Notes: generated from the sequence alone by a model not told the origin. A stretch of DNA of 64,000 bases from a phage (GCA_024674815.1 GCA_024674815.1_4104.1); one strand, 5' to 3'. Counted from the first letter of the stretch, positions 61,276-62,018 are shown. Made by a program: numbers and translations.

Positions 61276-61534
61276 ATAATCTCCTAATAAAATATTCTCG
61301 ATTCTCTCTTATATACCCAGATACACAGTTAGTTGTGGCTTGGTTAGTGAATGAAATCTCACTATTGGACACGCCATTTGCATCACACAAAGGACATATT
61401 CCCATGTACTTGGGGGTCGGGTAGGTGTCCAATTTGTATTTTTCATTACACACCATGTACTGCTGTGGCAATACATCTAATATTATTTCATATTCTTCAT
61501 CAAACACCTTGAAGCATACCCAACATTTACCCAT
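61256..61534 (-). CDS. Cys-rich zinc-finger-like protein
   Basis: CWVC...C...CPLC. Confidence 0.5.
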   Translation of the reverse strand: MGKCWVCFKVFDEEYEIILDVLPQQYMVCNEKYKLDTYPTPKYMGICPLCDANGVSNSEISFTNQATTNCVSGYIRENREYFIRRLYERQNL

Positions 61535-62018
61535 TATAGTTTTCCTTTAACACCGTTCTTATATATTCGAATGTTTTAACAAACCAATCATGTTCGTCGG
61601 ATACATCTACAACTTTACCACCATATACATAGTAATGGTAAAAAGGTAACTTGCTTTTTCTTAATCTTTCGGCTAACTCTGGATTTTGAATTATCTTAGC
61701 ACAAATAGCATCTTGAATAATAGAAATACAATCATCCGTCATTTCAATTCGATCATGCATATATTTGTTAGCGGCTGCTTTTGCTGCTGCACCAGATACT
61801 TTTCTAAGGTCATCATGTTTTTGCCCAGTTAAAAACCAAAAGTAAAATGTTTCAACTGAAGGGAACCAACCATATGGTTCAAGTGTGAAGCTATGTGAAG
61901 AAAAGTTAGATAGATCTCTACCTAACTTAGTTCTAGCTTTACTATAAATGTTAATGTGTCGGTATCCATCATCAGTAGGGTCAATAAAGTCAAATGACTC
62001 TTCTGGGAACTCAAACAT
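61527..62018 (-). CDS. NADAR (YbiA/DUF1768)-like protein
   Basis: INIYSK...DLSNFS...GWFPSVETFYFW...AAAKAAANKY...AICAKIIQNPELAERL resembles recalled YbiA hallmarks. Confidence 0.6.
   Translation of the reverse strand: MFEFPEESFDFIDPTDDGYRHINIYSKARTKLGRDLSNFSSHSFTLEPYGWFPSVETFYFWFLTGQKHDDLRKVSGAAAKAAANKYMHDRIEMTDDCISIIQDAICAKIIQNPELAERLRKSKLPFYHYYVYGGKVVDVSDEHDWFVKTFEYIRTVLKENYNG

Follow-up and report, generated by a model that had tools for sequence, protein, structure and literature searches.

A small stand-alone NADAR-superfamily protein of a jumbo coliphage and its divergent His-type viral clade

All of the NADARs that have been assayed (DarG1-type, sigma-70-linked, YbiA, T4 AdfN, Bas32, Bas60, and eukaryotic) hydrolyse guanine-linked ADP-ribose on DNA and, where tested, on RNA; some also take cytidine-ADP-ribose, none takes thymidine-ADP-ribose or phosphate-end ADP-ribose, and DarTG1 is defeated by phage NADARs (PMC11257639, PMC11125620, PMC11833690, PMC12945103). 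In 2024 phage NADARs were shown to be orphan-antitoxin-like, erasing the ADP-ribose marks of DarT1 from phage DNA (PMC11257639); the concept of phage NADARs as erasers of DNA ADP-ribosylation is therefore already published and not new. The phage NADARs tested so far are the T4 type and two others only. For most phage NADARs, a small-molecule role was predicted by Iyer, Burroughs, Aravind, and colleagues (PMC9503650, PMC7824862).

The residues used by these proteins are known in some detail. In PnNADAR the distal ribose is held by E43 and E125, K50 touches adenine and the pyrophosphate, K75 and R79 shield the pyrophosphate, and W89, R93, D130, and W133 also contact it; the Lys equivalent to K50 in the E. 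coli C7 NADAR, K95, is essential, has a phosphate-binding role, and can be substituted by Arg in vitro (PMC11543638). The function of T4 AdfN is abolished by E36A and by K43A (PMC11257639). The residue on the last strand sets the NADAR subfamily, being Glu in YbiA, Asp in the DarT1-associated BC4488 proteins, and His in the phage gp30.3 proteins (PMC11125620, PMC11543638).

The protein described here most resembles T4 gp30.3/AdfN (PF08010, an anti-DarT1 DNA ADP-ribosylglycohydrolase). Both are small stand-alone proteins of about 150–160 aa from large virulent myoviruses, and they have in common the YbiA fold, the LSNF motif, the catalytic Glu (E56 in our protein, E36 in AdfN), the AK..G motif, and the last-strand His (H128/H123); several lineages of the clade to which our protein belongs also share the DNA-ligase neighbourhood of T4 AdfN. 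In contrast to AdfN, the clade is a separate one (PHROG 652 and 11222), our protein lies below the PF08010 threshold and is without an equivalent of K43, and the clade has its own N-terminal DGxxHINIYSKGxTxLGR motif and C-terminal HYY/W145 motif, and is often fused to DUF4326, SLOG, or Macro domains. E. coli YbiA (PDB 2B3W, the YbiA subfamily of PF08719) has Glu on the last strand where our protein has His, retains the Lys seven residues after the catalytic Glu (E+7) and the D..WG loop, unlike our protein, and is encoded on the bacterial chromosome, in an operon under LexA control (PMC11125620), again unlike ours. The DarG1 antitoxins (BC4488 subfamily; PDB 8BAT, the E. coli C7 NADAR) have Asp on the last strand rather than His, and their N-terminal fold extension, conserved essential Lys, and operonic linkage to DarT1 were not seen here. 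The viral multidomain Macro/DUF4326/NADAR/SLOG proteins (PMC9503650, PMC7824862) have the same architectures as the fusions of the clade, whereas our protein is stand-alone with the partner domains encoded far off in the genome; those papers hold no clade-level account of the missing Lys and no experimental data.

The gene and its transcription unit

The window, that is, the whole stretch of 64,000 nucleotides of phage DNA that was analysed, had been predicted from its sequence to encode a 163-aa protein resembling YbiA and other NADARs. An ORF listing of the window confirmed the ORF, with an ATG start, at exactly the coordinates that had been claimed. The gene and the signals around it are as follows.

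61527..62018, minus strand: complete gene for a 163-aa NADAR-superfamily protein of a divergent His-type clade, PHROG 652
62019..62036, minus strand: junction with the upstream gene, whose TAA (62021-62023) lies 2 nt before the ATG; purine-rich, Shine-Dalgarno-like GGAGAAGAAG (direct sequence reading)
63549..63567, minus strand: terminator-like hairpin upstream of the gene block, likely the start of the transcription unit; coincides with a terminator annotated in phage G17
59473..59501, no strand assigned: strong hairpin of 13 bp with runs of T and A on its flanks, likely the downstream terminator of the unit containing the NADAR-like gene; coincides with a minus-strand terminator annotated in G17

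That this ORF is a genuine, conserved coding gene and did not arise by chance is clear from its relatives, which were found in 506 of 50,697 phage records by tblastn and in 2,088 cluster representatives at 50% identity by an exhaustive search with a profile HMM. The gene is part of a long same-strand array of small, tightly packed genes, with a GGAG in the purine run about 13 nt 5′ of its ATG. The ATG of the next ORF downstream overlaps its stop codon, so that translation of the two may be coupled; this downstream ORF (window 61256-61534, minus strand) encodes a Cys-rich protein of 92 aa (CWVC...CPLC, zinc-ribbon-like) without a Pfam match. The two hairpins listed above likely bracket a transcription unit of about 4 kb and about 11 genes that includes the NADAR-like gene. 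When the window was scanned for promoters, 29 sigma-70-like sites were observed and 28.2 were expected; as this is the level of chance, no promoter was assigned. None of the ten flanking genes had a significant Pfam match, and all are annotated as hypothetical in phage Sharanji.

Superfamily assignment and active site

Scans with the single sequence gave no Pfam-A or NCBIfam match at E≤10 and no match to any PDB sequence; thus, the NADAR signal appears only when family profiles are used. PADLOC reported nothing for our protein and nothing for AdfN, the positive control, and its result is therefore uninformative. When a 28-sequence family alignment was used as a profile against all PDB sequences, there were exactly two matches, both of them NADARs: 8BAU (the Phytophthora NADAR with ADP-ribose) at E 1.2e-4 and 2B3W (E. 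coli YbiA) at E 5e-4. Comparison of the same alignment with single sequences by hhalign gave probabilities of 90.6% for YbiA and 71% for T4 gp30.3/AdfN, and comparison of a 176-sequence domain alignment with a 108-sequence AdfN/PF08010 alignment gave 97.9% (E 3.2e-13) over 106 columns. Used as it stands, the AdfN HMM also picked up clade members, with direct matches in 13 of the 48 dereplicated viral lineages (best E 2.6e-9) and at each of the nine bacterial-genome loci with a detected family gene, indicating that intermediate sequences bridge the clade and the AdfN family. The match to PF08719 proposed in the original prediction held in part: the single sequence failed, did not pass the gathering threshold of that model, and had just 5 of 28 relatives that touched it (best E 0.024), whereas the family profiles reached the NADARs 8BAU, 2B3W, and the AdfN family. 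The gathering threshold of PF08010 (36 bits) was not passed either, our protein giving no match and its relatives at most 27 bits. A comparison of structures with YbiA, which had also been proposed, bore the prediction out, as YbiA was the best structural match. These results showed that the gene product is a small stand-alone NADAR-superfamily (YbiA-fold) protein, nearest to the phage gp30.3/AdfN type.

The codons of interest for the active site, all on the minus strand, are listed here with the evidence for each.

61941..61970, minus strand: codons D17-S26 (DGxxHINIYS), first beta-strand and clade-specific N-terminal motif (176-sequence conservation; hhalign with YbiA)
61902..61913, minus strand: codons L36-S37-N38-F39, LSNF motif common to YbiA, PnNADAR, and AdfN (LSNF-LSNF alignments; each residue at least 90%)
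61851..61853, minus strand: codon E56 (GAA), equivalent of the catalytic distal-ribose-binding Glu (alignments; 176/176)
61830..61832, minus strand: codon L63, position of the canonical essential Lys, E+7 (alignments; conservation)
61767..61781, minus strand: codons K80-N84 (KAAAN), with K80 equal to PnNADAR K75 and N84 at the R79 site (HMMER alignment to 8BAU)
61629..61637, minus strand: codons H128-Y129-Y130, start of the last beta-hairpin (conservation; AdfN alignment)

The strings on which the NADAR resemblance had originally been based were all present in the translation (I24-Y25-S26, S37-N38-F39-S40, F52-P-S-V-E56-T-F-Y-F60, A77-AAKAAANKY86, and A104-ICAKIIQNPELAERL119) and fell in the columns conserved best across the family, N23, Y25, S26, S37, N38, F39, F52, S54, E56, K80, and K108 each being conserved in at least 90% of 176 sequences. 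N23, Y25, and S26 align with N-F-Y-S of YbiA; D17, G18, and H21 are clade-specific and, together with T30, G33, Y129, Y130, and W145, make up the clade's own near-invariant residues, and positions K27, R34, and K135 are often basic. E56 pairs with PnNADAR E43, E. coli C7 E88, and AdfN E36 in three alignments and is invariant in the 176 sequences. H128 occurs in 173 of them, aligns with AdfN H123, and stands at the start of the strand formed by residues 129-132; judged from these alignments, it is the charged last-strand residue and of the phage (gp30.3) His type.

The phosphate side of the pocket was less well preserved. K80, conserved in 174 of the 176 sequences, matches PnNADAR K75 (the SEQRES index of 8BAU equals the numbering of the paper plus 2). 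The position of PnNADAR R79, which is 84 in our protein, is R or K in 128 of the 176 relatives; in our phage it is Asn with K85 adjacent, and the equivalent of PnNADAR G78 is Ala. The PnNADAR contacts W89, R93, D130, and W133 were not conserved in the clade either. The E+7 Lys (PnNADAR K50, E. coli C7 K95, AdfN K43) is L63 in our protein: L63 was aligned to AdfN K43 by hhalign against the AdfN family, a gap stood at the Lys in the YbiA alignment, and position 63 was basic in 15 and non-basic in 161 of the 176 relatives. The 15 basic members had a median score of 21.5 bits to AdfN compared with 17.1 for the others, a slightly closer resemblance which suggests that the E+7 Lys is ancestral and was then lost. 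The lineage of our phage departs further from the clade consensus at G57T, W59Y, Y60F, G83A, and R84N. The clade thus appears to combine a maintained Glu/His active site with a remodelled phosphate pocket. Of the catalytic residues expected in a NADAR, then, E56 and H128 were present and the E+7 Lys was absent; the check on these residues came out half for and half against the original prediction, the interpretation of which was supported in part.

Relatives and genomic neighbourhoods

The region is 99.6–100% identical to PBECO4, slurp01, Sharanji, G17, and other Asteriusvirus jumbo coliphages, and the gene is annotated as a hypothetical protein in every listed Asteriusvirus record. Besides Asteriusvirus, the phages with tblastn relatives included K64-1-like phages, many Ackermannviridae (CBA120, Det7, LIMEstone, and others), jumbo phages of Erwinia, Serratia, and Xanthomonas, and Vibrio phages. 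In PHROGs our protein was placed in phrog_652 (E 5.9e-45) and phrog_11222, both listed as function unknown. The clade is almost exclusively viral, with 170 confirmed matches in viral contigs as against 11 loci in a pattern-limited scan of about 185,000 species' genomes, and these 11 loci resemble phage regions. In the literature searched there was neither a clade-level description of the Lys-less clade nor an experiment on it. QAY00367.1, a jumbo-phage NADAR cited in PMC7824862, was considered as the ortholog in phage G17 and could not be linked to it; the G17 proteins bear QBO accessions.

The ortholog in phage G17 (locus L004, MK327931, 2225-2715) has a 1-nt deletion in AACAAATAT, just past codon N84 (window 61767-61775 region), and the resulting frameshift gives two annotated ORFs of 92 aa and 71 aa. 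The G17 record gives the C-terminal piece as identical to a protein of 121Q, which probably has the split as well; a model of the 92-aa fragment is also found in BFVD. Either the G17 sequence is in error here or the gene is a natural pseudogene like RB69 adfN. Three phage lineages (L048 4992-5943; L075 4971-5925; L069 4989-5459 and 8913-9479) have the domain twice, side by side or with about 3.5 kb between the copies, where one copy has every invariant residue and the other is degenerate (LSNF changed to LAPR with E56 changed to A, or H128 changed to A or S); the degenerate second copies are possible pseudo-enzyme or regulatory paralogs.

De novo clustering of the neighbourhoods of 80 viral loci, which represent 48 dereplicated lineages, yielded no strongly conserved neighbour, the maximum being 8 of the 48 lineages, and among the ten neighbour clusters that were scanned DNA ligase was the sole nameable one. 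An ATP-dependent DNA ligase lies 1.5–3.5 kb from the family gene in six independent viral lineages (loci L033, L036, L047, L059, L062, L079, and L086; T4 counterpart L001 3746-6766). The arrangement in T4, where 30.3/adfN is found just past ligase gene 30 and about 3 kb from alt, matches these lineages, and the proximity of ligase in the clade and in T4 may be an ancient synteny. A 392-aa phage ADP-ribosyltransferase (L006 7500-8678) is convergent to and abuts one relative, and another relative sits among genes for a 2H phosphoesterase, a Metallophos protein, and an RNA ligase; none of the other loci among the 80 contained relatives of that ADP-ribosyltransferase or of the 2H protein. Among the immediate neighbours scanned in the bacterial-genome loci there was no DarT or ADP-ribosyltransferase. 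From the neighbourhoods we concluded that the clade is carried by viruses as a mobile orphan module rather than as half of a toxin-antitoxin pair.

Elsewhere the window contains some 100 small genes on the minus strand, very few of which match anything in Pfam. Those that could be named are a C5 cytosine DNA methylase (HaeIII-like in Sharanji), a DenV-type pyrimidine-dimer glycosylase, a sigma-70-like factor, AAA/STAND NTPases, a Peptidase_C58 (YopT-like) match, and plus-strand RCC1-repeat proteins; they span 54695-55564 (minus), 283-1464 (plus), and other ORFs within 1-59457. Of the other ORFs of 100 aa or more in the window, 92 in number, none encodes a Macro, DUF4326, SLOG, Nudix, or ADP-ribosyltransferase protein, and none matched DarT. 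OR844650, a complete unannotated sister phage genome identical over the 2-kb region queried, has a single copy of the NADAR-like gene, no canonical NADAR, and no AdfN anywhere in the genome. It does encode the following proteins.

OR844650, L014 25296-25628, minus strand: stand-alone DUF4326 protein (Pfam E 6e-24)
OR844650, L013 48765-49268, minus strand: macrodomain of 168 aa, missed by Pfam (found by a profile made with the clade's fusion partners)
OR844650, L014 44551-45363, minus strand: Metallophos phosphoesterase

The profile of the 168-aa protein matched TARG1/OARD1, Poa1p-type ADP-ribose-1″-phosphatases, and DarG macrodomains at E values from 1e-31 to 1e-16. As these three proteins are homologous to domains that are fused to the clade elsewhere, this type of phage appears to carry a dispersed ADP-ribose toolkit, and from the close kinship of the genomes we infer that the phage of the window has the DUF4326, macrodomain, and Metallophos genes as well.

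Fusion partners, substrate, and role

The reading that we put first, tentatively and with somewhat less than an even chance of being right, is that the protein may be a hydrolase of base-linked ADP-ribose that protects phage nucleic acid from host ADP-ribosyltransferase toxins. The ADP-ribose moiety would be bound in a cleft formed by helix 1 and the last beta-hairpin, E56 and H128 would hydrolyse the N-glycosidic bond joining C1″ of the distal ribose to the acceptor nitrogen, and the phosphate-binding job of the missing Lys would have passed to clade-specific basic residues, with K27, R34, and K135 as candidates. Expressed from its accessory-gene block, the enzyme would strip ADP-ribose, guanine-N2 first, from the nucleobases of phage DNA or RNA modified by host toxins such as DarT1; it would serve as an orphan-antitoxin-like counter-defence enzyme and complement the separately encoded macrodomain of the phage, which is of the DarG/TARG1 type, a clade handling thymine-linked ADP-ribose. 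Several results speak against this reading. The Lys that is essential in E. coli C7 (K95) and in AdfN (K43A is inactive) is Leu here, the other PnNADAR pyrophosphate contacts (R79, W89, R93, D130, and W133) are not conserved, the single sequence reaches no Pfam or NCBIfam model, and no DarT or ADP-ribosyltransferase gene accompanies the clade, the one phage ADP-ribosyltransferase neighbour excepted. In addition, the DUF4326 and SLOG fusions and the 2H phosphoesterase, RNA ligase, Thg1-like, and AAA_28 neighbours would fit soluble ADP-ribose/NAD metabolites or RNA repair equally well.

The fusions are extensive. Among 175 representatives, 100 are stand-alone and 75 have extensions of at least 60 residues; Pfam domains identified in 72 long members were DUF4326 (25, or 35%), YAcAr/SLOG (18, or 25%), Macro (6), DUF488-N3a (5), and, once each, Metallophos, exonuclease, and canonical NADAR. 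Protein P0086 has the architecture Macro-DUF4326-clade domain-SLOG. The 1,415-aa metagenomic protein P0097 carries a canonical NADAR at 10-143 (E 1e-20), the clade domain at 548-698, and DUF4326 at 1185-1274; the presence of both NADAR types in one polypeptide suggests that their specificities are non-redundant. Viral fusions of Macro, DUF4326, NADAR, and SLOG domains were described by Iyer, Burroughs, Anantharaman, and Aravind (PMC9503650, PMC7824862), and as the architectures recovered here match them, the clade was very probably counted as NADAR there.

These partners are what chiefly recommends a second reading, which we regard as the main rival of the first though as rather unlikely, namely, that the protein is an active NADAR-type N-glycohydrolase acting on small molecules. 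Together with the phage DUF4326 (rhodanese-phosphatase-like), macrodomain, and SLOG proteins it would process soluble ADP-ribose derivatives, whether NAD-derived immune signals or toxins (cyclic ADPR isomers, ADP-ribose-1″-phosphate-type compounds) or by-products of Tpt1/KptA-type RNA repair. The fusion frequencies and the architecture of P0086 fit such a pathway, as do two loci in which the fusion-partner domains are separate same-strand neighbours, in the order family gene, DUF4326, macrodomain (L100) and macrodomain, family gene (L105); the profile of the fused macrodomain also matches Poa1p-type ADP-ribose-1″-phosphatases. Among the neighbours, the 2H phosphoesterase with its RNA ligase, the Thg1-like 3′-5′ polymerase (3033-4858) that with a DUF488-N3a protein flanks the family gene in L098, and the AAA_28 protein directly upstream in two unrelated loci (L099 3399-3953 and L103 3464-3994) point in the same direction, the two NADAR types of P0097 are in keeping with separate substrates, and a remodelled phosphate pocket with the Lys lost is compatible with a different ligand geometry. 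On the other hand, YbiA with its riboflavin intermediates aside, activity on a soluble ADP-ribose signal has been demonstrated for no NADAR, and all of those tested act on base-linked ADP-ribose in nucleic acids (PMC11125620, PMC11833690, PMC12945103); AdfN, the closest characterised relative, is a DNA de-ADP-ribosylase (PMC11257639), and the gene is solitary in the window, with no partner among the scanned ORFs of at least 100 aa.

A further proposal, which we consider unlikely, is that the Lys-less His-type viral clade takes a substrate that is new for NADARs, as one step in a modular pathway of ADP-ribose disposal. Candidate substrates would be ADP-ribose attached to some base besides guanine and cytosine, for example to adenine in mRNA, or an NAD-derived immune signal, and the partners would be DUF4326 (phosphatase-like), the TARG1/DarG-type macrodomain, and SLOG, which in certain viruses are fused and in this jumbo phage would be encoded by separate, dispersed genes. 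Specificity would then be set by the remodelled phosphate pocket and the clade-specific DGxxH...K27/R34 motif.

Sponges and toxin binders are established anti-defence strategies of phages, and the protein might instead be a catalytically impaired NADAR-fold binder, acting as a sponge for an ADP-ribose signal, a stoichiometric shield on ADP-ribosylated nucleic acid, or a direct inhibitor of a host ADP-ribosyltransferase; we judge this improbable. [quoted passage not shown] However, across about 2,000 clusters E56 never varies and H128, N23, S37-N38-F39, and K80 hardly do, as is seen where an active site is maintained, and since Arg substitutes for the C7 Lys in vitro (PMC11543638), another basic residue could compensate for the one lost. 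Finally, a housekeeping YbiA-like N-glycosidase that would destroy reactive intermediates of the riboflavin pathway, or ribosylated metabolites of another kind, and play no part in conflict with the host is very improbable: E. coli YbiA is annotated as an N-glycosidase and is the best structural match, but His occupies the last-strand position at which Glu defines the YbiA subfamily (PMC11125620), nearly all matches to the clade are in viruses, and the fusion partners of the clade are domains of the ADP-ribose network rather than riboflavin enzymes.

The new points are that an unannotated, very widespread clade is assigned to the His-type NADARs and that a residue regarded as essential is missing clade-wide. 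With about 2,100 clusters at 50% identity and members in 506 of 50,697 phage genomes, the clade is much larger than the set of phage NADARs tested, and it occurs in Asteriusvirus, Ackermannviridae, and other jumbo phages, among them some under consideration for therapy and biocontrol. It is missed by Pfam and NCBIfam and is listed as unknown in PHROGs. Because the Glu/His pair is kept and the Lys thought essential is absent, the clade offers a test of the function of that Lys and of the substrate specificity of NADARs, and re-annotation of its members as NADAR-superfamily candidates would improve the prediction of which phages overcome ADP-ribosylation-based defences.
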